NCBI GenBank assembly: GCA_032718475.1
Contig: JAUCBJ010001846.1
Span: forward strand, 62,001 to 126,000
DNA: 64,000 nt
Reading direction: 5' to 3'
Source: Nemertoderma westbladi
Lineage: Eukaryota; Animalia; Xenacoelomorpha
The notes under the pieces were generated by a model. It was not told the DNA's origin. It searched no databases and saw nothing but the letters and a program-made list of their open reading frames with translations. This document shows, piece after piece, positions 40 to 34,829 of the stretch (its first letter is position 1; the number at the start of each line of letters is the position of its first letter). Made by a program: the position numbers and the translations under genes.

Positions 40-708
40 ATGGGAAACTCCCCGTTACTTCGCTTATTACAGCTAGCTAACCCCGCCAAACCCATTGGGG
101 GGTATTGTTATTCAGCTGGGCTTGAAGGGGCTGTGAACACTGGCCTTGTGCAAAACAAAAAAGACCTTCAAGATTGGCTAAACACCCTGCTAGGTGAGGT
201 GCTTGTGTACAATGATTGTGCCTTAATGATTCGATTAATGCAGAGTTTATGCGCATCGAACATGTCCCAACTTTTACACTGGAACCAGTATGCGCTGGCT
301 ATTTTAGGTAACCAAGAGGCCTATGACGAGTCTAGAAAAATGGGTCAAGCCTTGCTGATGCTGGCCAAAAAACTGGGTATTCAGTTGCCTGCTAAACCTG
401 TTGACACACCCATCAGTTATGTCGTTTCTTATTGTTTGGTGGGGCATGCTTGGGGTATTTCCACCAACGACCTTATTTTAACCTATTTGTGGGGGTGGTT
501 AGAAAACCAACTATCTGGGGCCATGCGCTTACTACCCATTGGCCATTATGAAACACAAAAAATAATGTTAGCAGCTGATCAAACAATCAGTGCCTCCACA
601 CAGTTGGCCAAAAAAGTGCGCGATGACCAAATGGGGAAAAGCCTGCCGTTTTTTGAGCTATTATGTGCACAACACCAAACCCAATATACGCGTTTATTTC
701 AATCTTAA
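40..708 (+). CDS. ureF: Urease accessory protein UreF (intact copy)
   Basis: [22 protein letters not shown]-terminal motif, C-terminal YTRLFQS, directly upstream of ureG. Confidence 0.9.
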
Positions 709-719
709 AAGGAGGTATG

Positions 720-1325
720 ATGAAAAAAAGCCCATTTCGAATTGGTATCGGGGGGCCTGTTGGTTCAGGCAAAACAGCATTGATTCAACAATTGTGTATG
801 AATATGAAAGACACCTATCAAATGGCCGTTGTGACCAACGACATTTACACCCAAGAAGATGCCCAATTTTTAGCCAAACACCAAGCACTAGAAGCGGACC
901 GAATTGTGGGGGTTGAAACAGGCGGGTGTCCACACACGGCTATTCGGGAAGATGCCTCCGCTAATTTAATGGCCATTGAAGGTTTGGAAAAACGCTTCGA
1001 TAACCTAGATTTAATCATTGTTGAATCAGGGGGCGATAATTTAAGTGCCACCTTTAGCCCCGATTTGGCTGATATGACCTTGTATGTTATTGATGTTTGC
1101 GCGGGTGATAAAATACCTCGAAAAGGAGGTCCAGGCATTACCCGCTCTGATTTGCTGATCATCAACAAAATGGATTTAGCCCCCTATGTGGGCGCATCGC
1201 TGGCGATGATGAAAAAAGATTCAACAAGGATGCGAGGCGATAAACCCTTTGTATTCACCAACTTAAAAACACAACAAAATGTAAACCAAGTGATTGACTA
1301 CATTCAAACCAACATGGTGCTGTAG
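720..1325 (+). CDS. ureG: Urease accessory GTPase UreG (copy 1)
   Basis: [10 protein letters not shown]-loop, ETGGCPH, ESGGDNL and NKMD motifs; SD AGGAGG at 710-715 (start 717 or 720). Confidence 0.97.
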
Positions 1326-1356
1326 GCGACAGTACATTGATTAAGTGTTACCGTTT

Positions 1357-2337
1357 TCAGTCAATTAATTGATCAACTAAGTTTAACAAGGTTTGCTGCT
1401 CGTCTTGATCCAACATGCTACCTGAAAGTATTTGGTCAACCGCCTTGCGCCAATTTTGTAAATATTGTTGGGCTTGAGAAAGGGCAGTTGTTTGGTGAAA
1501 ATGACTTAAAATTAACCGAATTTGGCTATCATCACGTTTTTTAATGTAGCTTTCTACCTGTGTCTTCAGTGTGCTGGATGCCTGCATACCTAAAATTAGT
1601 GGCAAGGTGATTTTCCCTTCCACTAAATCGTGACCAGAAGGTTTGCCTAGCACATGATCTGACGACTGATAATCCAACAGATCATCAGATAATTGAAAAA
1701 TCATGCCCACATAATAGCCATAGCGTGAAAAAATCGTACATATCTCAGGGCTTGCGCTATGAGTATGGCAAACAATTTTGCCGATTAACTCAAACAAGCT
1801 GGCTGTTTTTTTCTCAATGATTTTTAAATAATCATTGATTGATAAATCAATATTAAATGCCAAGCGCATTTGGCTGACCTCACCTTCAGCCAATACACTC
1901 ATACAATGAGAAAACTCATACCCAAGACTTGGGTCATCGGCAACCAACATCAAGGCGCGGGCGGATAAAAAATCACCCGCCAAAATACTCAATGTATTGC
2001 CCCAAACATGACGTACACTGGGTTGGTGACGCCTAAATTCAGCTTGATCGATCACATCATCATGCAGTAAAGTCGCCATGTGAATCATTTCAATTGCCGC
2101 GGCTTGTTTAAAGTCTGTCTGCACATTTGTTACATCTTTTTTTGGGTGTGTTGTCATGATTTGATCAAGCATCATCCATACAAGTGGACGAATCATTTTG
2201 CCCTGACGTGCTAAATAATAATGAATAATCTCAGCTAGCAGCGGCTCATCACTTTGAAAACAAGTGGAAAAATAGGTCTTAAACTGCTTAAAACGTTCAG
2301 CAATTTGGGTATGTTGAGCGAATATTTTTTCAAACAT
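1357..2337 (-). CDS. ispB: Polyprenyl (octaprenyl) diphosphate synthase (copy 1)
   Basis: GKMIRP, LLHDDVID...RR and FQLSDDLLD aspartate-rich motifs; likely start MFEKIF at 2337. Confidence 0.9.
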   Translation of the reverse strand: MFEKIFAQHTQIAERFKQFKTYFSTCFQSDEPLLAEIIHYYLARQGKMIRPLVWMMLDQIMTTHPKKDVTNVQTDFKQAAAIEMIHMATLLHDDVIDQAEFRRHQPSVRHVWGNTLSILAGDFLSARALMLVADDPSLGYEFSHCMSVLAEGEVSQMRLAFNIDLSINDYLKIIEKKTASLFELIGKIVCHTHSASPEICTIFSRYGYYVGMIFQLSDDLLDYQSSDHVLGKPSGHDLVEGKITLPLILGMQASSTLKTQVESYIKKRDDSQIRLILSHFHQTTALSQAQQYLQNWRKAVDQILSGSMLDQDEQQTLLNLVDQLID

Positions 2338-2348
2338 GCCTGCTTTGA

Positions 2349-2747
2349 TTACTGAACACAACTCACCACCCGTCCAACAATAATCAAAAGTGGAGACTGT
2401 AGGCGTATATTCCCCACCCAAGCCTCGGCTTTTTTCAATTGTGTTTTATAAATCTGTTGATCGGCTGTGGTACCTTTGACAATAAAAGCCATGGGGGTAT
2501 CTAGTGGCATACCGTGGTCTTTTAAATTTTTAATACAAATATCTAAACTAGCTTTTCCCATGAAAAATACCAATGTTTTAAACGGATCAATTACCTTTTC
2601 CCATGGCACTTGATAGGCGAGCTTGCCCGAACCATCGCCATGTAGGGTTAAAAACTCAACCGAATGGGCACAGTCGCGATGCGTTAGGGGAATGTTGGCA
2701 TAAGACGCACAGCCATTGGCCGCACTGACCCCTGGGACAATGCTAAA
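2349..2747 (-). pseudogene. cysG: 5'-truncated duplicate of cysG (C-terminal ~132 codons only)
   Basis: Identical to 10911-11309 and cut at the repeat/island junction. Confidence 0.92.
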
Positions 2748-2821
2748 AACAAGACTGAAAACAGGATCAAGGGGGTGTTGAGGAGGAGGGGTGTGTTATA
2801 AAGTTTAAGGGTGAAAAATAG

Positions 2822-2890
2822 TGACATTGATTTTGGAAATTATTTTTCATTTCTATTGTCATTTTTTTTCAAAATGAGTGTTAACTGAAT
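2822..2890 (+). repeat. 69-bp partial copy of the MITE-like element at 29100-29269 (right part)
   Basis: TGACATTGATTTTGGAAA...GAGTGTTAACTGAAT matches 29200-29268 at 67/69. Confidence 0.9.
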
Positions 2891-2921
2891 GAAATATAAA
2901 ATTAACTTGTCACTCAACCTG

Positions 2922-3788
2922 TCATCCTACATCCACCAAAGCCCCAAAAATACTCTCTAAATCCAGACTTAAAGATTCAATTGGACGAATCAGCATGGCA
3001 AAATACGTTTGCCAAAGAATCACACCTGCCACGCCTTGCATATTAAAACTAATGACATAGCCTGCAATCAGTGTTACAAACATCAATAAGTAGACAGGCA
3101 ATGTCAGCATAAAGTTTTCTCTTGCATTCTTTATCATCTTCAATGCGATGGTTTCATACCATTTAGGTAGATGCTCAGAGAGATGTGTTTGTTTAAGGGT
3201 TTGAATGGATTGTTCTGTTTCTTTTTCGGCTAAGTTATTCCATTGTGTTCTATTGTATTTATATTTGCCTTTTATAAAAAAGCTATAGCCCAGTACAAAC
3301 ACGACACTAAAGATACAAAGCAAAGTGATAGATAGATTGATGGTAATGCTTAAAAATATAAGGGCTAATATAATTTGCAAACATGTTCCCAATATTAAGG
3401 TAGAAGATTCTGTAAAGATTGATATATAAGCCTGTCTTGTTCTTTCAAATGTTTCAATCGCATGGTCTTTATTGATTGAATGCTTTTGCGTAGCCTGAAT
3501 GCTCTGATAAGAAAAAAGTCTTGATCCATAAATATTGAGGTAAGTTGTAACTGCATGCATTGCAATGTTGAAGATGCCAAATATAGCGGTAATGCTTAAC
3601 ATCAATATCACGCTTTTTAAAACTTCTGGTGAGGTGCTGTTGGCATCTAAAAAGAGTTGGTAAATTCCTAAAGGAAATATCATGGAAACTAAAGAAGTAC
3701 ATACAAGAAGCGTTAAGAATACATAACTTAACTTTTTAGGCAAAGTTTTAAATGCTTGTTGTAGAGTTTTGATATAAAGCTTAAACAT
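2922..3788 (-). CDS. ABC exporter transmembrane domain (lasso D-like), no nucleotide-binding domain, possibly truncated
   Basis: About 6 hydrophobic segments; ends LIRPIESLS...ALVDVG, where ABC membrane domains join the NBD; no Walker A. Confidence 0.65.
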   Translation of the reverse strand: MFKLYIKTLQQAFKTLPKKLSYVFLTLLVCTSLVSMIFPLGIYQLFLDANSTSPEVLKSVILMLSITAIFGIFNIAMHAVTTYLNIYGSRLFSYQSIQATQKHSINKDHAIETFERTRQAYISIFTESSTLILGTCLQIILALIFLSITINLSITLLCIFSVVFVLGYSFFIKGKYKYNRTQWNNLAEKETEQSIQTLKQTHLSEHLPKWYETIALKMIKNARENFMLTLPVYLLMFVTLIAGYVISFNMQGVAGVILWQTYFAMLIRPIESLSLDLESIFGALVDVG

Positions 3789-5679
3789 CTTTTAAAGTTT
3801 CTTTCACTTTGGGGCTTGTGTAGTTGGGGTGGGAGAGTTTCAGTTTGGTGGCTTTATCGTTTTTTATAAAACGAAGCCAGCTTTCTGCTATTAGTTGATT
3901 ATGCAAATAACCTGTTCGCAAAGAAGCTGGATAGCCCTTGATTCTTGAAGAGGAAAGTTCCGAATATAGAAGCTTTAGAAATTCTTTTGGCTCTACCATA
4001 TTAAATTGATACAACATGGATGCAGAAGGATTGTTGGTAAAAATATCTAATAACTTTTGACTGTCATTTCTAATCATATGAACCATCATCTCGCCATAAG
4101 ATGTTTTAAATTTTTTAGTTCTAATAGATTCAGGCATAATATTTGAGAAACTGTGTCTTTGAATTTGTTTTTCTCTTGCATATTCTTCATAAAAAGAAAT
4201 ATCTTCGTGATAAGCAATATCATAAAGAAAGTGCTGAGCAATGGAATCAAAAAATTCAATAATACGTGCATCTAGCAACGGTGTTTTGTATGGAATCATA
4301 GAACTAAAAGCATCATGAAAATAAGAAGGATACTCTTCTAAAAATAAATGTCTTTGTCTATGAGTTAGTGTTGGTTCTTTTATCCATTTGCTTTGATTCA
4401 GCAATATTTTAAAAAAAGAACTAAGATTTACTTTGCCTGATACATTGTGTTCATACATGAAAGCATTGGGAATGAAAGTTAATTTGTTTCCTAAATAAAT
4501 CAGCAAACTTAAATAGAAGGACTTAAAAGAACTATTGCCAAGTTTTTGAATCACTTTAGATATACTTGCAAAACCTTTTTGCTGCATCAAATCATCTAAG
4601 CAATATTGACTACCTTCAGTTACATAATCGCCTTCACCACTCCATATAGAATGACAACCTAATTGTACAGCTAAGTTTTCTATAATTTCTTGCCAAAAAG
4701 GAAGACTCGTTGTAGCGGGTGTATCAATTCTTCTCCATGCGTCATTTGAAGATAGGCCATGAATATGAAGTAGCTTAGAACATTCAATAGGATAAAACTG
4801 GCAAGCTGTTTGATCAGCACACTGTTTAGCTAAGCCTAAGTCGTTGGTGTTGTGAAATACAGGATCACTAAAATACATGCTAAGTGCATAATTAGATTGC
4901 TTTTTATTGGCATAAATTGCACTAGCCACGGTTGCAGAATCTAAACCTCCGCTTATTTCAATCAGTTTTTTAGATGAATCTTGTGTTGTAACGACATTTT
5001 TCATCAAGTCTTCAAACGATTCACAGGCTTCTTTGAAAGATAACTTAGTTAAATCATTAGGATAATTGGAGTAATTAGAATAAGTTTTGTGCTCAATATC
5101 TAAAATCTGTTTCTTCAGATGAAAGCTAATACATGTGCCGCTACCCAAAAGCCTGACATTTTTTAAGCAGGTATCATGAAAAGATTCTGAAATATTATTT
5201 TGAAAAGAAAGCCACTGTTGTAAGCGTTGAGCATCTACCTCTAATTCAAAATTAGGAATCAGAAGTAAAATTCTTGAATCCGTTGTAATGTAATGGTTAT
5301 TGTGAAGCGATACCACATAAAGAGGAGGGCTTGTATAAAACGATGAAATAATTAAAAACTGATTGCCTGTATAAGCTGTGGCAATATAGATGCCTGCAAT
5401 ATCTTTTCTTGCCTCATTGTAGTTATTTTTCCATCTATCATTCCATAGCTGTTTATCTATTATTGGGTTTTCAAGATTCATGTATTGATCATTAAAAGTA
5501 CAAAAGCCTTGCCCTAAAAAGTTGGCATTTAGTTTTTGATATTGGTGTCTAAAGATTGCTTTCTTAACAATGCCTGCATCTTGTAAAAAGGATTTAAAAT
5601 CATTTCCAAGCCACTCTTTGCAAGACAAATACCATTGTTTAATCAACGCTTCTTTTTTTCCAATTCCAATCATCAACAT
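3781..5679 (-). CDS. Lasso peptide cyclase (asparagine-synthetase-like, C protein)
   Basis: EISGGLDSATV PP-loop, WSGEGD, TPLLDARIIEF; 632 aa; no N-terminal Cys of true AsnB; adjacent to B2, RRE and precursor. Confidence 0.9.
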   Translation of the reverse strand: MLMIGIGKKEALIKQWYLSCKEWLGNDFKSFLQDAGIVKKAIFRHQYQKLNANFLGQGFCTFNDQYMNLENPIIDKQLWNDRWKNNYNEARKDIAGIYIATAYTGNQFLIISSFYTSPPLYVVSLHNNHYITTDSRILLLIPNFELEVDAQRLQQWLSFQNNISESFHDTCLKNVRLLGSGTCISFHLKKQILDIEHKTYSNYSNYPNDLTKLSFKEACESFEDLMKNVVTTQDSSKKLIEISGGLDSATVASAIYANKKQSNYALSMYFSDPVFHNTNDLGLAKQCADQTACQFYPIECSKLLHIHGLSSNDAWRRIDTPATTSLPFWQEIIENLAVQLGCHSIWSGEGDYVTEGSQYCLDDLMQQKGFASISKVIQKLGNSSFKSFYLSLLIYLGNKLTFIPNAFMYEHNVSGKVNLSSFFKILLNQSKWIKEPTLTHRQRHLFLEEYPSYFHDAFSSMIPYKTPLLDARIIEFFDSIAQHFLYDIAYHEDISFYEEYAREKQIQRHSFSNIMPESIRTKKFKTSYGEMMVHMIRNDSQKLLDIFTNNPSASMLYQFNMVEPKEFLKLLYSELSSSRIKGYPASLRTGYLHNQLIAESWLRFIKNDKATKLKLSHPNYTSPKVKETLKDV

Positions 5680-5684
5680 GGTAT

Positions 5685-6152
5685 TTACAATAATACTTGA
5701 TGGAGGTTATCCTGAAGGTAGTTTTCTTTTTTGATGACAGTTAATCCCCTTATTTGATTGAATATGTCTATTTGTTGTAAAGATTTTTTGGTTTGATACT
5801 CTAACCAAGCATGTTGAATAATTTTACCACCCGCTCCATCTTTTGCTACTGCGTAAACAACATAGGACTTAAAACCAAATACCCCGCAATACAAATGAAA
5901 AGCAACAGAGGCAGTTAAACAAGTTAATGCTATATTATTGTTTTCATAATTGCTTGCTACAAGTTTTCGTAAACGATTGAGCTTTTTATGGAACAAAAAG
6001 CTGATGGGTTCTTGTGGATGGAATGTGGTATCAATGTAACTGCATTGCCGACAACATTTTAAAATCGCTTTATCTGTAGTTTTAGATTCATTGAGGTTTG
6101 ATAAAAAACTAGCATGTAAGAGCTTAAAAAGTAATAAATCTTTTTTCATCAA
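5685..6152 (-). CDS. Lasso leader peptidase (B2, transglutaminase-like)
   Basis: TCLTASVA ... QHAWLEY Cys/His motifs typical of lasso B2; 155 aa. Confidence 0.88.
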   Translation of the reverse strand: MMKKDLLLFKLLHASFLSNLNESKTTDKAILKCCRQCSYIDTTFHPQEPISFLFHKKLNRLRKLVASNYENNNIALTCLTASVAFHLYCGVFGFKSYVVYAVAKDGAGGKIIQHAWLEYQTKKSLQQIDIFNQIRGLTVIKKENYLQDNLHQVLL

Positions 6153-6952
6153 AGGTTAAAGTCTGCATGTAAAGCAAATGCCCAACTGTTTGCATGAAAA
6201 CTAAATTGTTTTTTATGTTGATCTAACACATAGTGAGCACTTAAATGGCTACTTTCTATTTTTTCAATAATATTGCCTTGGCGCTTATTTTCTGCCTTTG
6301 AAATACAGCTATTAAGTAAAAGTACTTCTGCATGATGTTTTAAGGCTGTGTTTTGAAGAAATCTTATGTATTTTTGATATTTAGAATATGCATTTTTTAC
6401 AGAATAATCTCTAAAAAACAAATCAGGTAAGGCTATTAAAATACCTTTGTTATTAAGAACAGATGGAATCTTTCTAAGATAAGAAGTAATGTCATAACAA
6501 AAGATCAAATTGATTCCAAAAAATGAAGCATATTGAATCCATCTTTTTTCCAAAACGGGCATCCAACTTCTTCTATAAATTAAAATTTCAATCTGATCTT
6601 CTCTTTTTAAACGTAAATTAAAAACCAAGGAGAATATATAAGGTAATAGAAACTTACCATGAGCTGATATAACAATAAAAGGTTGATTCCATTTCTCTAC
6701 ATCGACTTCTATAAAATTTTGGAAATACTTTGCAAAAGCAATATGTTGTGAACAACATAAATAATCATAGTATACCCTCATGTTGTTGATATAACCTTTT
6801 TCCAAAAGCAACCTTTGGGCTTTAGGCAAGGTAAATCTCAAAACAAAATTATGCAGATACGCTAAAGCAGTATGAAGACATCTTTTATAAAAGGAGGTAT
6901 AAAAACTTCTTAAAAATAAATGAAGATGTAAAGACTCTACACAAGCCTTCAT
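6149..6952 (-). CDS. Divergent lipid-A/lysophospholipid acyltransferase-like protein (LpxL/HtrB-like)
   Basis: FIVISAHG, NKGILIALPD and C-terminal NSWAFALH follow the LpxL motif order; the acidic residue of HxxxxD/E is not evident. Confidence 0.55.
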   Translation of the reverse strand: MKACVESLHLHLFLRSFYTSFYKRCLHTALAYLHNFVLRFTLPKAQRLLLEKGYINNMRVYYDYLCCSQHIAFAKYFQNFIEVDVEKWNQPFIVISAHGKFLLPYIFSLVFNLRLKREDQIEILIYRRSWMPVLEKRWIQYASFFGINLIFCYDITSYLRKIPSVLNNKGILIALPDLFFRDYSVKNAYSKYQKYIRFLQNTALKHHAEVLLLNSCISKAENKRQGNIIEKIESSHLSAHYVLDQHKKQFSFHANSWAFALHADFNL

Positions 6953-7530
6953 GTTTGACTATAAAAAGCTACTTTTTCATCTTCTATTGTATAACCCATA
7001 TTTTTTAGAGCACTTCGGGCAATAGCAAATGCCTTTTTAAGAGGCATGTGGGTTAGCATCTCAAATAGAAGCAGCGTAAACAATAAAGTAGAGTTGCCAT
7101 CGGGGTAACGAGGAAAGCCAATATAGTTTTTAGTTTTATGTTCTAACCAAACATCTGCCCAAGTTTGAGTACCTGTCATACAAGCAGTAGAAAGTATCAA
7201 TTGACATTTGCTTTTGTTTGGATGTTGTGAAAGTAAAGTTTCAAGTTGTTGAGTTTGAATGAGATTATTCTCAAACTTGTACTTTAAGGGCACAGATTCG
7301 TGGACTTCAGGTAAAGAAAAACCTGCGTTGTCTTGCGAATCACTGTCTCCATGCCCGTCAATAATCAGGTAAGGGGTTTTAGGTGTTTTTGTAATATGTT
7401 TTACAAAATCATCAGCGCTTCCGATATAGTGCATCAATACTTCGTAACATAAATATTCTAAAGATGATCGTATAGCTTGAGTGGACAATGAATCACTGAT
7501 GCAAAAAATGGTTACTTTTTTGTTTTTCAC
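6949..7530 (-). CDS. Stand-alone caspase/CHAT-like (clan CD) cysteine protease
   Basis: YLIIDGHG and LILSTACMTG, i.e. His-Gly and Ala-Cys dyad motifs each after a hydrophobic strand; GTG start. Confidence 0.65.
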   Translation of the reverse strand: MKNKKVTIFCISDSLSTQAIRSSLEYLCYEVLMHYIGSADDFVKHITKTPKTPYLIIDGHGDSDSQDNAGFSLPEVHESVPLKYKFENNLIQTQQLETLLSQHPNKSKCQLILSTACMTGTQTWADVWLEHKTKNYIGFPRYPDGNSTLLFTLLLFEMLTHMPLKKAFAIARSALKNMGYTIEDEKVAFYSQT

Positions 7531-7804
7531 AAAGATTGTGTTTTTGAATTAAACCAACCTCTATTAAATCATCAATAGCCAATTGTAAATAGTTTTTAGA
7601 TGAATGTTTAGAATCGGTTACTATTTCTATTGATTCAGCTATATTTGAAAGTTCGTTTAATGTAAGTTTTTTGTTTTCTAAAATTTTTTGAACAATAAAC
7701 GTGTGAACTTCTGAAAGCTCCAATATTTCTTCGTCTTTGTGTACCACCATGTTGTTGTCTAAAACAACATGGTGCATACCACAATAAGCGTAAGCTTCTT
7801 TCAT
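7493..7804 (-). CDS. RiPP recognition element (PqqD-like, lasso B1)
   Basis: About 100 aa; LELSEVHTFIVQKI...LAIDDLIEVGLI PqqD-like pattern; directly downstream of the precursor. Confidence 0.75.
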   Translation of the reverse strand: MKEAYAYCGMHHVVLDNNMVVHKDEEILELSEVHTFIVQKILENKKLTLNELSNIAESIEIVTDSKHSSKNYLQLAIDDLIEVGLIQKHNLCEKQKSNHFLHQ

Positions 7805-7809
7805 ATAAG

Positions 7810-7974
7810 CTAACTACCGCCACCGATACTGATAGTGCCTGTATTAAAACCGGAGCCACCACCTTTAGAGCCTCTCGGACGTGTTCCGTCACCCGGTTTA
7901 TTCTTTGTTCTCTGCGTTGCAATAGCAATATCTCCATGTTTCTTAATAGGAACATAATTTAATTTTTTCTTCAT
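7810..7974 (-). CDS. Lasso peptide precursor, 54 aa: leader MKKKLNYVPIKKHGDIAIATQ + RTKNKPGDGTRPRGSKGGGSGFNTGTISIGGGS
   Basis: SD GGAGG at 7980-7984; leader has Y-x-P...G-x5-T-x with Thr at -2; Asp at core position 8; first gene of the cluster. Confidence 0.9.
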   Translation of the reverse strand: MKKKLNYVPIKKHGDIAIATQRTKNKPGDGTRPRGSKGGGSGFNTGTISIGGGS

Positions 7975-8560
7975 AAATACCTCCACAGATTTCAAAATAA
8001 GATTTTAACTTAATAAACTCCCTTATTTCAAGATACTTTTAATAAATCTACATGTTGTAAATTCTTAAAAATCATATCCCCACGCAAATAAAGCAGTATA
8101 AAAATGAATTTAGATACCAAATATGAAGCAGGATTTTTTTGCTTATTCCAGAAAAAAGCAGGGATAATCTCATCTTTAACATGGCCTTTGTTATTGAGTG
8201 CATCCCCTACCAGCAGTAATCTTTTAATCAAGAACAGACATATGAATGAAGTTGCCAGAACGCTAATATCTGTTCATTTTGATGAACAACGATACTTGAA
8301 TCCAACTTAACATGTATAGAATCGACAAATTGATAAACACACATTTGGGCTTAAAAGTAGCCCCATGAAACTATCTTTCCCCTTATTAATTGGTTGCTGA
8401 CACTATTTAACCTCCAAGTAACACCCATTTTTCTCAATTTGATTCTCCGTTTGATTCACATTCCATCATTTTCTTGAGGGTTAATGAATTAGATGTGTTG
8501 GTTGTTTTTGTGAATGCTTATGACCTATTCTTTAAACAAAACTTGATTCAACACCATTAG

Positions 8561-8755
8561 TTAAAGACATTGCGCATTACTTGGATTTGAAAGTATATAA
8601 GCAGTTTCTTCATAAGATTGAAAATCTTCAAGGCTCATTACAACAGCAGTTTTCTTGTTTTGACGAGTAATCAAAATGGGCTGATGATCATCACTGACTT
8701 TGTCTAGGTTTTTTGCTAATTGATCTCGGAATGAAGAGTAAGTAATCGTTTCCAT
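8561..8755 (-). pseudogene. yefM: Phd/YefM antitoxin, C-terminally shortened, orphan (no toxin gene)
   Basis: METITYSSFRDQLA...ITRQNKKTAVVMSLEDFQSYEETAY; 64 aa vs ~83 typical; start lies 17 bp from the island junction. Confidence 0.8.
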
Positions 8756-8772
8756 ATAAAATTTGGTTTAAT

Positions 8773-9270
8773 AATGATTGTGCCTTAATGATTCGATTAA
8801 TGCAGAGTTTATGCGCATCGAACATGTCCCAACTTTTACACTGGAACCAGTATGCGCTGGCTATTTTAGGTAACCAAGAGGCCTATGACGAGTCTAGAAA
8901 AATGGGTCAAGCCTTGCTGATGCTGGCCAAAAAACTGGGTATTCAGTTGCCTGCTAAACCTGTTGACACACCCATCAGTTATGTCGTTTCTTATTGTTTG
9001 GTGGGGCATGCTTGGGGTATTTCCACCAACGACCTTATTTTAACCTATTTGTGGGGGTGGTTAGAAAACCAACTATCTGGGGCCATGCGCTTACTACCCA
9101 TTGGCCATTATGAAACACAAAAAATAATGTTAGCAGCTGATCAAACAATCAGTGCCTCCACACAGTTGGCCAAAAAAGTGCGCGATGACCAAATGGGGAA
9201 AAGCCTGCCGTTTTTTGAGCTATTATGTGCACAACACCAAACCCAATATACGCGTTTATTTCAATCTTAA
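8773..9270 (+). pseudogene. ureF: 5'-truncated duplicate of ureF (first 57 codons missing)
   Basis: Identical to 211-708 and cut at the junction. Confidence 0.92.
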
Positions 9271-9281
9271 AAGGAGGTATG

Positions 9282-9887
9282 ATGAAAAAAAGCCCATTTC
9301 GAATTGGTATCGGGGGGCCTGTTGGTTCAGGCAAAACAGCATTGATTCAACAATTGTGTATGAATATGAAAGACACCTATCAAATGGCCGTTGTGACCAA
9401 CGACATTTACACCCAAGAAGATGCCCAATTTTTAGCCAAACACCAAGCACTAGAAGCGGACCGAATTGTGGGGGTTGAAACAGGCGGGTGTCCACACACG
9501 GCTATTCGGGAAGATGCCTCCGCTAATTTAATGGCCATTGAAGGTTTGGAAAAACGCTTCGATAACCTAGATTTAATCATTGTTGAATCAGGGGGCGATA
9601 ATTTAAGTGCCACCTTTAGCCCCGATTTGGCTGATATGACCTTGTATGTTATTGATGTTTGCGCGGGTGATAAAATACCTCGAAAAGGAGGTCCAGGCAT
9701 TACCCGCTCTGATTTGCTGATCATCAACAAAATGGATTTAGCCCCCTATGTGGGCGCATCGCTGGCGATGATGAAAAAAGATTCAACAAGGATGCGAGGC
9801 GATAAACCCTTTGTATTCACCAACTTAAAAACACAACAAAATGTAAACCAAGTGATTGACTACATTCAAACCAACATGGTGCTGTAG
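9282..9887 (+). CDS. ureG: UreG (copy 2)
   Basis: Translation identical to copy 1. Confidence 0.95.
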
Positions 9888-9918
9888 GCGACAGTACATT
9901 GATTAAGTGTTACCGTTT

Positions 9919-10899
9919 TCAGTCAATTAATTGATCAACTAAGTTTAACAAGGTTTGCTGCTCGTCTTGATCCAACATGCTACCTGAAAGTATTTGGTCA
10001 ACCGCCTTGCGCCAATTTTGTAAATATTGTTGGGCTTGAGAAAGGGCAGTTGTTTGGTGAAAATGACTTAAAATTAACCGAATTTGGCTATCATCACGTT
10101 TTTTAATGTAGCTTTCTACCTGTGTCTTCAGTGTGCTGGATGCCTGCATACCTAAAATTAGTGGCAAGGTGATTTTCCCTTCCACTAAATCGTGACCAGA
10201 AGGTTTGCCTAGCACATGATCTGACGACTGATAATCCAACAGATCATCAGATAATTGAAAAATCATGCCCACATAATAGCCATAGCGTGAAAAAATCGTA
10301 CATATCTCAGGGCTTGCGCTATGAGTATGGCAAACAATTTTGCCGATTAACTCAAACAAGCTGGCTGTTTTTTTCTCAATGATTTTTAAATAATCATTGA
10401 TTGATAAATCAATATTAAATGCCAAGCGCATTTGGCTGACCTCACCTTCAGCCAATACACTCATACAATGAGAAAACTCATACCCAAGACTTGGGTCATC
10501 GGCAACCAACATCAAGGCGCGGGCGGATAAAAAATCACCCGCCAAAATACTCAATGTATTGCCCCAAACATGACGTACACTGGGTTGGTGACGCCTAAAT
10601 TCAGCTTGATCGATCACATCATCATGCAGTAAAGTCGCCATGTGAATCATTTCAATTGCCGCGGCTTGTTTAAAGTCTGTCTGCACATTTGTTACATCTT
10701 TTTTTGGGTGTGTTGTCATGATTTGATCAAGCATCATCCATACAAGTGGACGAATCATTTTGCCCTGACGTGCTAAATAATAATGAATAATCTCAGCTAG
10801 CAGCGGCTCATCACTTTGAAAACAAGTGGAAAAATAGGTCTTAAACTGCTTAAAACGTTCAGCAATTTGGGTATGTTGAGCGAATATTTTTTCAAACAT
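9919..10899 (-). CDS. ispB: Polyprenyl diphosphate synthase (copy 2)
   Basis: Translation identical to copy 1. Confidence 0.9.
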   Translation of the reverse strand: MFEKIFAQHTQIAERFKQFKTYFSTCFQSDEPLLAEIIHYYLARQGKMIRPLVWMMLDQIMTTHPKKDVTNVQTDFKQAAAIEMIHMATLLHDDVIDQAEFRRHQPSVRHVWGNTLSILAGDFLSARALMLVADDPSLGYEFSHCMSVLAEGEVSQMRLAFNIDLSINDYLKIIEKKTASLFELIGKIVCHTHSASPEICTIFSRYGYYVGMIFQLSDDLLDYQSSDHVLGKPSGHDLVEGKITLPLILGMQASSTLKTQVESYIKKRDDSQIRLILSHFHQTTALSQAQQYLQNWRKAVDQILSGSMLDQDEQQTLLNLVDQLID

Positions 10900-10910
10900 G
10901 CCTGCTTTGA

Positions 10911-12284
10911 TTACTGAACACAACTCACCACCCGTCCAACAATAATCAAAAGTGGAGACTGTAGGCGTATATTCCCCACCCAAGCCTCGGCTTTTTTCAA
11001 TTGTGTTTTATAAATCTGTTGATCGGCTGTGGTACCTTTGACAATAAAAGCCATGGGGGTATCTAGTGGCATACCGTGGTCTTTTAAATTTTTAATACAA
11101 ATATCTAAACTAGCTTTTCCCATGAAAAATACCAATGTTTTAAACGGATCAATTACCTTTTCCCATGGCACTTGATAGGCGAGCTTGCCCGAACCATCGC
11201 CATGTAGGGTTAAAAACTCAACCGAATGGGCACAGTCGCGATGCGTTAGGGGAATGTTGGCATAAGACGCACAGCCATTGGCCGCACTGACCCCTGGGAC
11301 AATGCTAAAGGGAATGCTGTGATCGGCTAAATGCGTAATTTCCTCACCCCCCCGACCAAAAACAAATGGGTCACCCCCTTTTAATCGAACCACATGCTTG
11401 CCTGCTTGGTAATGTTCAACCATCAGATCACAAATAACCGATTGTGGAACACTTTTGCCATAGCCGCGTTTACCCACCGCAACTAACTGAGCATCTCGCC
11501 TTACAAATTCTAAAACGCCCTGACCGATTAGTTGATCATGCAACAACACATCAGCACGTCTCATCAATCGACAAGCTTTGAGTGTTAAAAGCTCAGGGTC
11601 GCCTGGCCCTGCACCCACAATTGAGACACTGCCTGTATGATGTTGACGATTATTAAACTGTTTTAAGCAAGTGTTGGCATGGGCTAACATGGCTTGATGG
11701 GTTTGATAATTCAACAATTGATCTAATTGGTCATCCAGCAAGTATTGCCAAAAACGTTTTTTGGTTTCATCCAAACGCATTTTTTGAACCAAAGGGCGTA
11801 GGGTGTCAACCACCTCAATTAACTGGGTATAAGTTTTGGGCAGTTGTTGGAGTAGGTGTTTGCGAATGCCAGCACTGAGCATGGGGGCTTTGGTGCTGCT
11901 ACTGATGGCAATTAAAAGGGGGCTGCGATCAATCACAGACGGGACAACCGCACTACAAAAATTGGGCTGGTCAACTACATTTACCAAACAGTTTGTTTGA
12001 CTTGCTTGATGATAAATTTGTTGATTAATCAAGGGGTCATCGGTTGCAGCAATCACCAAGAACTGATCCTCTAAATCACATAGGTCATAACATCGTTTGA
12101 CTAAAAATAATCGGTGGGTTTGATCGTCCAGTGTCTTAATTTCAGGTAAAATTTCGGGGGCAACAACTGTTAGTATCACACCGGCTTGATAAAGGCGTTT
12201 TGCTTTTTGAAACGCAATTTTTCCCCCACCCACAATTAAACACTTTTTTTGATGCAGGTCTAAAAAAAGGGGGTACAAACTCAT
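10911..12284 (-). CDS. cysG: Siroheme synthase (multifunctional CysG)
   Basis: YPLFLDL..IVGGG dehydrogenase domain; VGAGPGDPELLTLKA and RLKGGDPFVFGRGGEE methyltransferase motifs. Confidence 0.97.
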   Translation of the reverse strand: MSLYPLFLDLHQKKCLIVGGGKIAFQKAKRLYQAGVILTVVAPEILPEIKTLDDQTHRLFLVKRCYDLCDLEDQFLVIAATDDPLINQQIYHQASQTNCLVNVVDQPNFCSAVVPSVIDRSPLLIAISSSTKAPMLSAGIRKHLLQQLPKTYTQLIEVVDTLRPLVQKMRLDETKKRFWQYLLDDQLDQLLNYQTHQAMLAHANTCLKQFNNRQHHTGSVSIVGAGPGDPELLTLKACRLMRRADVLLHDQLIGQGVLEFVRRDAQLVAVGKRGYGKSVPQSVICDLMVEHYQAGKHVVRLKGGDPFVFGRGGEEITHLADHSIPFSIVPGVSAANGCASYANIPLTHRDCAHSVEFLTLHGDGSGKLAYQVPWEKVIDPFKTLVFFMGKASLDICIKNLKDHGMPLDTPMAFIVKGTTADQQIYKTQLKKAEAWVGNIRLQSPLLIIVGRVVSCVQ

Positions 12285-28377: not shown

Positions 28378-29413
28378 CTAAATTTTTTGCTTGGGAAAAG
28401 CACTTGAAAAGGTGATGACCTGCTGGGCGATTTGCGCAATAGCGTACTCATAAAAGGCTTGGTTTGCTTGGGTGTCACATAAGCCAAAAAGTTGTTGGCC
28501 TGCTTGGGTAAAAAGTGCTTTTCCTGTTTGTAACTGGTTGTTATCTTTTTTAGGGAACTCAAGTAATATTGGCTGCTTGTGATAAAAAAATATTGCCACC
28601 TCCATAGAGCCCATACTTTTCGTACCCTCCAACTGGATCAAACGATATTAACCCAATGGCATCTAAATGTTTTAGCGCTTTAAAATTAATCCCTTGCTCC
28701 TTGTATATTTCATTTTCATAATCAAAAATCAGAGGCACTCCATCCCCTATCACCCACACAAACTGGCAAAATTTTGTAAAAAACTTTGCATCACTTTTAT
28801 CCATCAAGGCCACTAAATTAAGCGTTCGTTTTGAATAGACGTTAGGGTTGGTAGCCTCTTTTGCCAATAAATTTGCCCAAAGTAATTGCATGATTGTATC
28901 CGATACCTTATCGCAGTGATCAAACAAATGAACCAACCAGTCTTCATCTAATTTTTCGGGCTTGGCATTTGGGGGCAGGTTTTTGATGGCTTGGGTAGTG
29001 ATTGATTCAGTATTTTTTGTTTTCGGGTTTGTTGGTGTGCCCACCAAACAGCCGCACGCTTTTCAATACCACCAACGGCTACATCCGCCTTGGCCATTAC
29101 ACTGGAGTAACACACATTCTGAAAACTACAAAAAGATACCAAAAACACTCCAACCTCAAACACACCAAAAAATCATGGCAATTTATCTATTCAAGAAAAT
29201 GACATTGATTTTGGAAAATCTTTTTCATTTCTATTGTCATTTTTTTTCAAAATGAGTGTTAACTGAATTTTATGATTTTAGCTTTTTGTCCTCGGCCTTT
29301 TTAACGATTCTTTTAGGCTCATACAAAATATCAACTGCATTGAACATTTTTTTAGAAAACACAGTTGCAGGCTTGGTTAAATCACCTAAATCAACAGAAA
29401 TATTATCTAGCAT
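28378..29413 (-). pseudogene. DUF2806-like protein, frameshifted and interrupted by a 170-bp insertion
   Basis: SD GGAGG + MLDNISVDLGDLTKPATV at 29413; continues MAKADV..., LDEDWL...VSD..MQLLWANLLAKEA..P..YSKRTL in pieces. Confidence 0.78.
29100..29269. mobile_element. 170-bp non-coding MITE-like insertion with sub-terminal inverted repeats
   Basis: 18-bp IRs at 29108-29125 and 29244-29261 (16/18), each 8 bp from the end; flanked by TTA at 29097-29099 and 29270-29272; removal rejoins the gene in frame. Confidence 0.7.
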
Positions 29414-33800: not shown

Positions 33801-34829
33801 TCAAGTCGCATGCAACACCAAATTTTTCTCAAACTCATTCAAACGCTTCCAAATGCTTCTAAGCTCGGTGATGGTTGTCCAATTATGTAAAAAAAGTGAA
33901 AAACTGCCATGCACTTTTTGAAAGGCATTGCTTACTTGCACCACCACCCCTAGCTGAATCAGCCCTGTAAACAAACTAGAGCCCACAAATAAATACGGCA
34001 CAATCATCATGAACTGATCATAAAAATTCAACCACAAATCAAAGTACCCATAATGCAAATAAAGCCGCTGATAATTAAACCGAATGCCTAAAAAAAGCTC
34101 CTTTAAGGTTTCAGGCTTGGCATAATTGATTTTATCATCCTCGCCTAGTACCAAATCTTTACGAAATGCAGCCTCAACTTTTTGGTTGTTATATTCCAAA
34201 CCGGGTAAATACCACCCCACCAACCATGAAATTAAAAGCCCACCAAGGGATACTACCAAAGCTACCCAAACCAGTGAACCATCCGCGACTTTAAGCCAAC
34301 TTAAGCCCACACTCGTGCTCAAGTTCCACAAAATCGGTAAAAAGGCCACCAAAGTCATAATGGCTCGAACAATTTGTAAGCCTAATGATTCCACAATGCG
34401 GGCAAAACGATTGCAGTCTTCTTGAATACGTTGGCTTGCGCCTTCAATTTCAGCCGTTACATTACGCCAGCGGGGAATATAGTCAAAGGTGATGGCCTCG
34501 CGCCAACGAAGACCATATATACGCGTAAACCAGCCTGTTAAAGTGGCTAAAATTACATAGGGGAAGGCCACAACCGAAAACGAGGGGTCGCCTTCAAGCC
34601 CATTGTATAAATAACTTAAAGATAGCAGGTGATCAAAAAAAAGCGTGATGCCTACCTGTGGATCATTCACATAATTGCCCGCATTTTGAAGCAAGTTATA
34701 AAACCTTCCATACCACTGGTTAATCGCTACTGTCATTTGCACCTGTAGCCACAACGACCCTAATAAAAGTAGCGCCCCACCCCATGCCCACATGGCCCAA
34801 TGCTTCGTCCAGAAAAATGCTTTAATCAT
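33801..34829 (-). CDS. SbmA/BacA-like peptide transporter
   Basis: AINQWYGRFYNLLQ, IEGASQRIQED, NNQKVEAAFRKDLVLGED and WTTITELRSIWKRL motifs. Confidence 0.88.
   Translation of the reverse strand: MIKAFFWTKHWAMWAWGGALLLLGSLWLQVQMTVAINQWYGRFYNLLQNAGNYVNDPQVGITLFFDHLLSLSYLYNGLEGDPSFSVVAFPYVILATLTGWFTRIYGLRWREAITFDYIPRWRNVTAEIEGASQRIQEDCNRFARIVESLGLQIVRAIMTLVAFLPILWNLSTSVGLSWLKVADGSLVWVALVVSLGGLLISWLVGWYLPGLEYNNQKVEAAFRKDLVLGEDDKINYAKPETLKELFLGIRFNYQRLYLHYGYFDLWLNFYDQFMMIVPYLFVGSSLFTGLIQLGVVVQVSNAFQKVHGSFSLFLHNWTTITELRSIWKRLNEFEKNLVLHAT

Follow-up and report, generated by a model that had tools for sequence, protein, structure and literature searches.

Lariocidin-type lasso peptides are recently recognised antibiotics which target the ribosome and are active against resistant Gram-negative bacteria. 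Natural variation in their cores and in their maturation is the raw material for improving them, and the locus described here is one such variant. It lies in a stretch of 64,000 nucleotides (hereafter the window) taken from the Nemertoderma westbladi assembly GCA_032718475.1 (contig JAUCBJ010001846.1, positions 62,001 to 126,000), in which a 54-codon open reading frame (ORF) on the minus strand very probably encodes a precursor of the lariocidin/triculamin kind. Taken as a whole, the locus is a genuine, divergent variant of the lariocidin/triculamin lasso family, with a precursor in which a leader is combined with a C-terminal extension, which sets it apart from the canonical and the follower-type members as they are described (PMC12070363; 10.64898/2026.07.03.736388).

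The hallmark reported for the family is a near-invariant PGDG motif centred on the ring-forming Asp8, together with many Lys and Arg residues (PMC12070363), and its spread into Gammaproteobacteria has already been published (PMC11451635; PMC12070363). In lariocidin, whose core is printed in a review table as SKKSKPGDGKFGRGVKRG (PMC12427821), the ring is formed between Ser1 and Asp8; on the ribosome, Pro6 and Gly7 approach the A-site tRNA while Phe11 stacks on U531 (PMC11451635). LrcF and GelP, the clan-CD C11 enzymes of the lariocidin (lrc, Paenibacillus sp. M2) and gelatinamin (gel, Brevibacillus gelatini) clusters, are reported to cut off the C-terminal Gly, and are able to link the C-terminus so formed to Lys2 (PMC11451635; PMC13178200). 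An N-acetyltransferase gene for self-resistance is described for the lrc, tri and gel clusters, though not for all clusters of the family, and self-resistance is usually conferred by a GNAT enzyme acetylating Lys3 or Lys16 (10.64898/2026.07.03.736388; PMC13178200). Triculamin follows a different route, in which the precursor is leaderless, B1 and B2 are missing, and a C-terminal follower is predicted to dock as a helix on an N-truncated cyclase (10.64898/2026.07.03.736388; PMC12070363). This follower is needed for biosynthesis (10.64898/2026.07.03.736388), and followers are described as carrying an FxRDL-type motif (PMC12070363).

The translation of the window from 7974 to 7810 on the minus strand is MKKKLNYVPIKKHGDIAIATQRTKNKPGDGTRPRGSKGGGSGFNTGTISIGGGS, with the stop codon at 7812-7810. 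Residues 1-21 (7974-7912) make up the leader, which has Thr at position -2 and ends in ...ATQ directly before an Arg. They are followed by an 18-residue core (residues 22-39, 7911-7858) with six Lys/Arg, PGDG at core positions 6-9 and one Asp at position 8, and by a Gly/Ser-rich tail of 15 residues (residues 40-54, 7857-7813). A prediction made earlier from the letters of this DNA (hereafter the original prediction) had proposed a leader with Thr at -2, an 18-mer at 7911-7858, six basic residues and a single Asp at core position 8, all of which is borne out by the translation and by a residue count. Beyond the leader, Asp8 is the sole acidic residue of the precursor, and since there is no other Asp or Glu there, any lasso ring must close on it. 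The idea of a second core within the tail was rejected, as the tail contains neither Asp nor Glu. The promoter-like site just upstream of the gene (Table 1) is a sigma-70-like consensus match alone.

The degenerate pattern K-x-K-P-G-D-G-x3-R-G-x-K, which is the skeleton shared by the window core, lariocidin and gelatinamin, has a single match in the window and none in 100 shuffles. It was found at 12 places in 596 Gb of species-representative genomes (10 lasso precursors and 2 chance occurrences) and at 10 places in a metagenome collection (8 precursors and 2 occurrences inside long unrelated ORFs), so that 18 of the 22 places with the pattern in these public collections are lasso precursors. 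Because of these counts, the observation of a precursor is real and far beyond chance. That the small ORF would be a chance frame is scarcely credible: it could be argued from its mere 54 codons, from the word-index search, which found no homologue of the precursor, and from scores below the curated cut-offs of hidden Markov models (HMMs), but the motif is missing from all the shuffles, a ribosome-binding site precedes the ATG, the ORF is placed ahead of B1, B2 and the cyclase, and the register of the leader is kept.

Compared without gaps, the window core is identical to that of lariocidin at 10 of 18 positions, and to the triculamin-type core of locus L019, the closest one, at 13 of 18 (both manual counts). 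The lariocidin core from which the original prediction had derived the same figure of 10 is correct, since it agrees with the review table (PMC12427821) and is also encoded in the loci fetched from Paenibacillus polymyxa and several Bacillus species; the recount was made against this published core. The residues kept from lariocidin are K3, K5, P6, G7, D8, G9, R13, G14 and K16. What the locus offers is a strongly diverged core, which differs from lariocidin by Arg1, Thr2 (there is no Lys for a second ring), Arg11 (instead of Phe/His) and Pro12, with the PGDG/RG/K skeleton retained. In BLASTP, the whole precursor aligns without gaps over 37 residues (residues 3-39) with lariocidin-type precursors at 40.5% identity, and with L019 at 63% identity over 27 residues, the latter alignment reaching a few residues into the L019 follower. 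The proposal that the ORF encodes a lasso precursor of the lariocidin/triculamin type is supported by these relationships, and in particular by sub-threshold HMM matches, the PGDG motif, the adjacent B2 and cyclase genes and the leader register.

For comparison with the leader, the 17 family precursors retrieved that have one supplied 14 different sequences. Anchored on the PGDG register, the window leader shares Ile/Val/Leu-12, Lys-11, Gly-8 and Thr-2 with these and has a His where they have Tyr at -9; it therefore presents the I/V-K-x-Y/H-G motif and the Thr-2 of the lariocidin and gelatinamin leaders. The anchored score was reached by 28 of 20,000 shuffles. The window ...ATQ/R aligns with ...VTL followed by S, A or R in 13 of the 14 family leaders, and the ungapped alignment from -12 to +9 fits a cleavage before Arg1. 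An Arg directly past the ...TL cut site is also seen in family precursors on two metagenome contigs (L017:3833-3874 and L021:1115-1156), where the leader is followed by RKKSKPGDG..., and in L017 the Arg1-type precursor is adjoined by B1-, B2- and cyclase-like genes. Arg1 had been called atypical, and it is indeed unusual in the family, but it is not unique to this locus, as it is predicted in L017 and L021 too. Cleavage before Arg1 and an Arg1-Asp8 ring are likely on these grounds, the predicted 8-residue ring on Asp8 being that of lariocidin and gelatinamin.

The tail distinguishes the precursor from its leader-bearing relatives. All 17 of those retrieved end 17-23 residues past the cut site, whereas the window peptide runs to 33; its extension amounts to 15 residues, against 0-1 extra residues in the lariocidin group. 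Otherwise a long C-terminal part was retrieved for L019 alone, as a follower of 36 residues; the L019 precursor is leaderless, high-GC and of triculamin type, and in it the sequence runs on past a ...KGG core end as it does in the window. In other respects the two loci are unlike each other: the L019 type has no leader, no B1/B2 and an N-truncated cyclase, while the window has a leader, B2 and a full-length cyclase. Because of this full-length cyclase, the presence of a leader and the Gly/Ser-rich composition of the tail, which is also free of the FxRDL-type motif described for followers, the tail is not a follower in the triculamin sense. Of the follower-like tail suggested by the original prediction, the C-terminal extension stands, being the longest among the leader-bearing relatives retrieved, while the likeness to a triculamin-type follower does not. 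It is accordingly very improbable that the tail is a recognition element, aiding the binding of the cyclase or the acyltransferase as in triculamin before its removal by any protease. The need for the follower in triculamin biosynthesis, the greater proximity of the core to leaderless L019 than to lariocidin and the reach of the BLASTP alignment into the L019 follower speak for such a role; the triculamin follower is, however, a predicted helix acting on an N-truncated cyclase where leader, B1 and B2 are all missing (10.64898/2026.07.03.736388; PMC12070363), a setting that differs from the one in the window.

The original prediction had also held a core of 33 residues to be very long. It is long but not unprecedented, since pandonodin is listed as a lasso peptide of 33 residues (PMC12427821), and length alone consequently forces no removal of the tail. 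We nevertheless lean towards a mature product from which the tail has been removed; the pro-drug function that the original prediction suggested for the tail is, like this removal, putative. Variation at the C-terminus was also seen in two other precursors of the family. On the metagenome contig L020 (10001-10042), a lariocidin-type precursor has a 21-residue core ending in an extra ...GGKKG, which is a case of natural C-terminal length variation within the canonical clade. In a metagenome-assembled genome of Planctomycetota (L009:1542-1748), a family precursor adjoining a B2 homologue has no Thr-2 and a Trp predicted at position 1, and ends in a 6-residue Cys-containing extension which hints at a possible disulfide.

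The precursor gene heads a minus-strand operon of 5.1 kb (7974..2922) with seven tightly packed frames, in the order A, 103-aa protein, 193-aa protein, 267-aa protein, B2, cyclase and membrane protein, which are joined by 4-, 4- and 8-nt overlaps or by 5-nt gaps and are all open. As in the lariocidin and gelatinamin clusters, a leader-bearing precursor is combined with B2, a full-length cyclase and a peptidase of clan-CD type. The B2 protein matches Transglut_core3 (E 5e-5, 23.6 bits for a cut-off of 26) and lasso_biosyn_B2 (E 1.5e-4, 22.2 bits for a cut-off of 33), aligns with LrcB2 homologues at an hhalign probability of 78.8%, and has the triad C78, H114 and D129, which is invariant with 10 LrcB2-like proteins. 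The cyclase matches the Asn_synthase family PF00733 with 29.5 bits, above the cut-off of 21, keeps the SGGLDS-type residues of the ATP site (S243, G244, G245, D247 and S248), and aligns with full-length cyclases from residue 7-12 onwards. It is only 21-26% identical to 8 lariocidin-type cyclases over 537-659 columns, which distinguishes it from the lrc enzyme and its like. Searching 1.84 billion representatives with HMMER gave 59 proteins at E<=1e-3, of which 57 match a lariocidin-type cyclase (21-62% identity) better than any other ORF of the fetched loci; the nearest of these relatives are lariocidin-type cyclases with 21-27% identity to the window protein, apart from one. This exception, a metagenomic sister with 38% identity (P0002), is alone among the 59 in having an E value better than 1e-30; its cluster has 5 members (P0002 and P0061-P0064), on JGI and Logan contigs of up to 7 kb. 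In an unrooted FastTree tree of 66 cyclases, however, the window cyclase and the P0002 group form a long branch of their own outside the clade of the verified loci. No homologue of the cyclase was found by the word-index search of 5.8 billion clusters, and scans of genome contigs and metagenome contigs with the cyclase and its sister gave no related loci. Furthermore, none of the seven operon proteins is present as an exact sequence in a collection of 15 billion proteins, and the operon would for this reason escape routine mining. Among the fetched loci, that of Bacillus paralicheniformis (L008:11988-14005) has its lariocidin-type cyclase divided over two ORFs (494 and 200 aa) which overlap, the cyclase of relatives being a single ORF of about 672 aa; this is probably a frameshifted gene.

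The cluster of palmamin, the canonical triculamin-like peptide of Chitinasiproducens palmae (Pseudomonadota), could be compared by its description, according to which it has a canonical A/B1/B2/C/D layout in a Gram-negative host and resembles the window locus in having no acetyltransferase or clostripain, while it differs in that its description mentions neither a tail nor genes of CHAT-like or LpxL-like type (PMC12070363). None of the island ORFs matched C11 clostripain. The gene found in the window instead, between the B1-position gene and B2 and overlapping both its neighbours, encodes a protein of 193 aa which returned nothing from Pfam, NCBIfam, PADLOC, PHROGs and PDB sequence searches or from the word-index homologue search; a language-model look-up returned small hypothetical proteins and one CHAT cluster. 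Relatives were found in 5 of 401 sampled Bacillota genomes by six-frame searches, and in 32 of 401 genomes of one class (Bacilli) by a profile search. An alignment of 31 sequences shows H60, G61, C117 and G120 to be invariant, and Pfam CHAT matches 11 of the 31 family members, with a best E value of 1.7e-5. The model built by AlphaFold2 from the single sequence was uninformative (pLDDT 42); the one built with the alignment of 31 sequences has a pLDDT of 84.5 and a pTM of 0.86. With this model, Foldseek gave SAVED-CHAT 8tl0 (E 7e-8, TM 0.66-0.70), followed by MALT1, the Craspase TPR-CHAT protease, the Bacteroides C11 protease 6n9j and caspases, and the profile of the family against the PDB has the CHAT protein 8tl0 at E 0.26. 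His60 follows the strand 54-58 and Cys117 ends the strand 111-117, which we take to be the catalytic arrangement of clan CD. The predicted fold, with His...Cys at the ends of adjacent strands, is thus the one seen in SAVED-CHAT, the TPR-CHAT protein Csx29, MALT1 and C11 enzymes, but unlike those the window protein consists of the catalytic domain by itself (about 190 aa) and has neither sensor nor repeat domains. A lipoprotein or a signal peptide was considered and rejected, as the protein has no hydrophobic N-terminal segment; it is probably cytoplasmic, judging from its sequence, and would in this differ from the C11 lipoproteins of about 400 aa of lrc and gel. In the Bacilli loci L023-L057, the relatives are likewise stand-alone caspase/CHAT-like proteins of about 180-215 aa with an invariant His and Cys.

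Directly shown are the gene sequences and their order in the operon, the way the proteins relate to the family, the intact catalytic residues and the fold of the peptidase; the favoured pathway can be built on these, its chemical steps and its target being inferred. The 103-aa protein in the B1 position and B2 (C78/H114/D129) would remove the 21-residue leader past Gln-1, after which the full-length cyclase would couple the Arg1 amine to Asp8, so that the tail is threaded through a ring of 8 residues. The 15-residue tail would then be trimmed by the 193-aa peptidase of CHAT/caspase fold (His60/Cys117), a step suggested by the clan-CD C11 enzymes LrcF and GelP, which process the C-termini of lariocidin and gelatinamin. 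The expected product, about 16-20 residues in length, would be cationic (charge +6), and its presumed site of action would be the 30S ribosomal subunit, because it keeps K3, K5, P6, G7, D8, G9, R13, G14 and K16 of lariocidin; the kept Pro6, Gly7 and basic residues in particular point to the ribosome as the putative target. Calculated monoisotopic masses of the lasso forms are 3142.60 Da for the 33-mer, 1850.00 Da for the 18-mer and 1735.96 Da for a 16-mer. This scheme of a leader-core-tail precursor of the lariocidin family, trimmed by the mini-CHAT enzyme, appears moderately probable as a whole, whereas the assignment of tail removal to the mini-CHAT enzyme in particular is tentative, somewhat short of probable. 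Lys3 and Lys5 are conceivable acceptors in place of Lys2, but a removal of the tail by transpeptidation onto either of them is speculative and decidedly unlikely. In this respect, the locus differs from those of the class V peptides lariocidin B and gelatinamin A, as residue 2 is Thr and no C11 transpeptidase with a signal peptide was found.

Several observations weigh against the scheme. Of the core residues of lariocidin, Phe11 is replaced by Arg, and Lys2, the class V acceptor, by Thr. The NCBIfam family models score the precursor below their cut-offs (lario_core, 17.0 bits and E 0.0056 for a cut-off of 27; lario_lasso, 15.9 bits and E 0.0087 for a cut-off of 40; NF050021, NF050022), and without anchoring, the leader does not stand out significantly in an HMM test, since 418 of 2,000 shuffles score equally. 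No tail-bearing relative was found by the word-index search or by the cyclase-based scans for related loci in genome and metagenome contigs. The B1 assignment of the 103-aa protein is without sequence support from Pfam, NCBIfam, PqqD/RRE or the PDB, and its hhalign probability with LrcB1 homologues is 1.3%. As for the 193-aa protein, it is itself unmatched by Pfam CHAT, it has no signal peptide, unlike surface-anchored GelP, and its hhalign probability with seven LrcF/GelP homologues is 3%, although a weak local alignment puts its His-Gly onto the His-Gly of the LrcF-like C11 enzymes. In the 11 Bacilli loci read, its homologues are found amid unrelated genes and not in clusters for ribosomally made peptides with post-translational modifications (RiPPs), and for this reason the 193-aa family has some other general role. 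Finally, neither Pfam nor NCBIfam identified a GNAT immunity gene among the island ORFs, and as the last gene is also without an ATPase domain, the cluster may be incomplete.

These points bear on two further explanations. The first is that the tail stays, giving a mature 33-residue lasso peptide with a flexible Gly/Ser-rich tail, while the CHAT-like protein has a part in regulation, immunity or housekeeping. We consider this unlikely. Pandonodin provides a precedent for a lasso of this length, and the stand-alone homologues of the 193-aa protein have no RiPP genes beside them in the Bacilli loci, but the 17 leader-bearing relatives all end within 23 residues of the cut site, and the position of the 193-aa gene between B1 and B2, with its overlaps, argues for a role in the pathway. 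In addition, lariocidin is reported to bind the ribosome in a compact form (PMC11451635), which a 15-residue appendage would probably disturb. The second is that the cluster is a decaying or incomplete remnant from which no product is exported. For transport, the locus has, unlike lrc, no D1/D2 ABC (ATP-binding cassette) pair that could be found; the last gene encodes a 288-aa membrane protein with paired hydrophobic segments, which has no ABC_membrane match and no similarity to LrcD1/D2 (Pfam, hhalign). It ends where the ATPase domain of an ABC exporter would begin, 174 bp from the edge of the island (Table 1), and is possibly a truncated exporter, to judge by this layout alone. A remnant would also agree with the low GC content of this foreign DNA, with a Phd antitoxin gene left as an orphan without a toxin gene, and with the finding of no recognisable immunity gene. 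It is still quite improbable, given that the seven frames are open and tightly coupled, that B2, the cyclase and the CHAT-like protein have kept their catalytic residues, and that in the source run the island is free of variants and indels.

The gene which the locus has in addition to those of lrc encodes the 267-aa protein. In a language-model look-up, 20 of its 30 matches belong to PF03279 (Lip_A_acyltrans), and a single BLASTP comparison with a PF03279 member (L060, 172.5 bits) gave 31% identity over 91 aa (E 1e-5). In this alignment, the window ...SAHGKF... falls on the His motif ...SAHFGNWE..., the acidic residue of the motif being placed in a gap. The protein has no match in Pfam or NCBIfam, its PDB sequence search was empty or at chance level, and two chance-level matches were obtained in the 401 Bacillota genomes and none in 381 genomes of the phylum of genome G005. 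From its sequence it is a divergent LpxL-like protein, for which catalytic competence cannot be asserted. Neither this protein nor the 193-aa one resembles LrcE homologues (hhalign 0.2%), and PADLOC and PHROGs gave nothing useful. Both Lys3 and Lys16, the residues acetylated by the GNAT enzymes of the family, are kept in the window core, and the LpxL-like protein may acylate the peptide, either as an immunity function replacing the GNAT or as a lipidation.

As regards novelty, a literature search combining 'CHAT domain' and 'lasso peptide' gave no paper, and no leader-bearing member with a long C-terminal extension, a CHAT peptidase or an LpxL gene was found in the literature consulted, which covered lasso peptides with leaders or followers and class V lassos with clostripains, although supplementary alignments could hold such a precursor. 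The mini-CHAT peptidase and the LpxL-like acyltransferase are accordingly accessory genes that we have not found reported for lasso clusters. Should the CHAT-like enzyme indeed trim or recyclise the tail, peptide chemistry would gain a new, compact tool for processing C-termini, and the stand-alone mini-CHAT family, which is present in 32 of the 401 sampled Bacilli genomes, would have its first function. The locus could even represent a third biosynthetic logic, between the leader and the follower routes, in which a leader-core-tail pro-peptide is trimmed or recyclised (at Lys3 or Lys5) by the mini-CHAT enzyme and an LpxL-type enzyme replaces the GNAT; taken with all its parts, such a system is on the unlikely side.

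Table 1 Features of the operon and of the surrounding island, in window positions.
Feature	Position	Strand	Basis or remark
Precursor gene A, 54 aa	7810..7974	(-)	Translation, sub-threshold NCBIfam matches, motif, BLASTP
Promoter-like site TTGAAA-18-TAAAAT	8031..8002	(-)	Consensus scan, 10/12 matches, joint-best of 13 sites
Ribosome-binding site GGAGG	7984-7980	(-)	Sequence read; 5 nt 5' of precursor ATG
103-aa protein, B1 position and size (RiPP recognition element, RRE)	7493..7804	(-)	Position only; starts 5 nt past precursor stop
193-aa mini-CHAT protein, caspase-fold, clan CD-like, predicted tail peptidase	6949..7530	(-)	Family alignment, AlphaFold2, Foldseek
267-aa divergent LpxL-like (Lip_A_acyltrans-like) protein	6149..6952	(-)	Language-model look-up and BLASTP
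B2 leader peptidase, transglutaminase-like Cys protease, 155 aa	5685..6152	(-)	HMMs, hhalign, triad
Lasso cyclase C, 632 aa, full length including N-terminal domain	3781..5679	(-)	Asn_synthase PF00733
288-aa membrane protein	2922..3788	(-)	Hydropathy segments 24-42, 59-77, 139-157, 228-258
Island with operon and Phd/YefM antitoxin gene	2748..8772	.	6,025 bp, GC 32.7% vs 40-42% in flanks
Exact direct repeat, left copy	211..2747	.	2,537 bp; right copy 8773-11309, offset 8562
Orphan Phd/YefM antitoxin gene	8561..8755	(-)	E 1e-21; 17 bp inside right island edge

The operon is located on an island flanked by two exact copies of a repeat (Table 1), which contains part of ureF, ureG, a polyprenyl synthase gene and the 3' part of cysG. 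One public DNA run contains the island DNA and is probably its source; no RNA run is listed. In the assembly graph of this run, the repeat is a single unitig of 2,537 bp with a depth of 87.5, compared with 49 for the island and 32-37 for the flanks, and short unitigs with a depth of about 50 span both island junctions, which are real in the graph. A repeat-island-repeat layout is what is expected from a circle that carries the segment and integrates by homologous recombination, and the depths may also be compatible with a tandem amplification or an additional free circle of 8.56 kb. Past the Phd/YefM gene no toxin gene was found, the 330 bp downstream having stops in all three same-strand frames. 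The remainder of the window is ordinary chromosome, with dnaA-dnaN-recF-gyrB, mur/ddl genes and secA, and no Rfam family was found in the window. At its left end, the island has a 69-bp element (2822-2890) which recurs at 29200-29268 with 97% identity; judging from the extra depth and the several loose ends that this element has in the source run, the genome may contain further copies, as would be the case for a small dispersed repeat. At 26 kb from the operon, the window also encodes a homologue of the SbmA/BacA-type peptide-antibiotic transporters (33801-34829, minus strand; NF009036, 463.8 bits; SbmA, E 8e-85).

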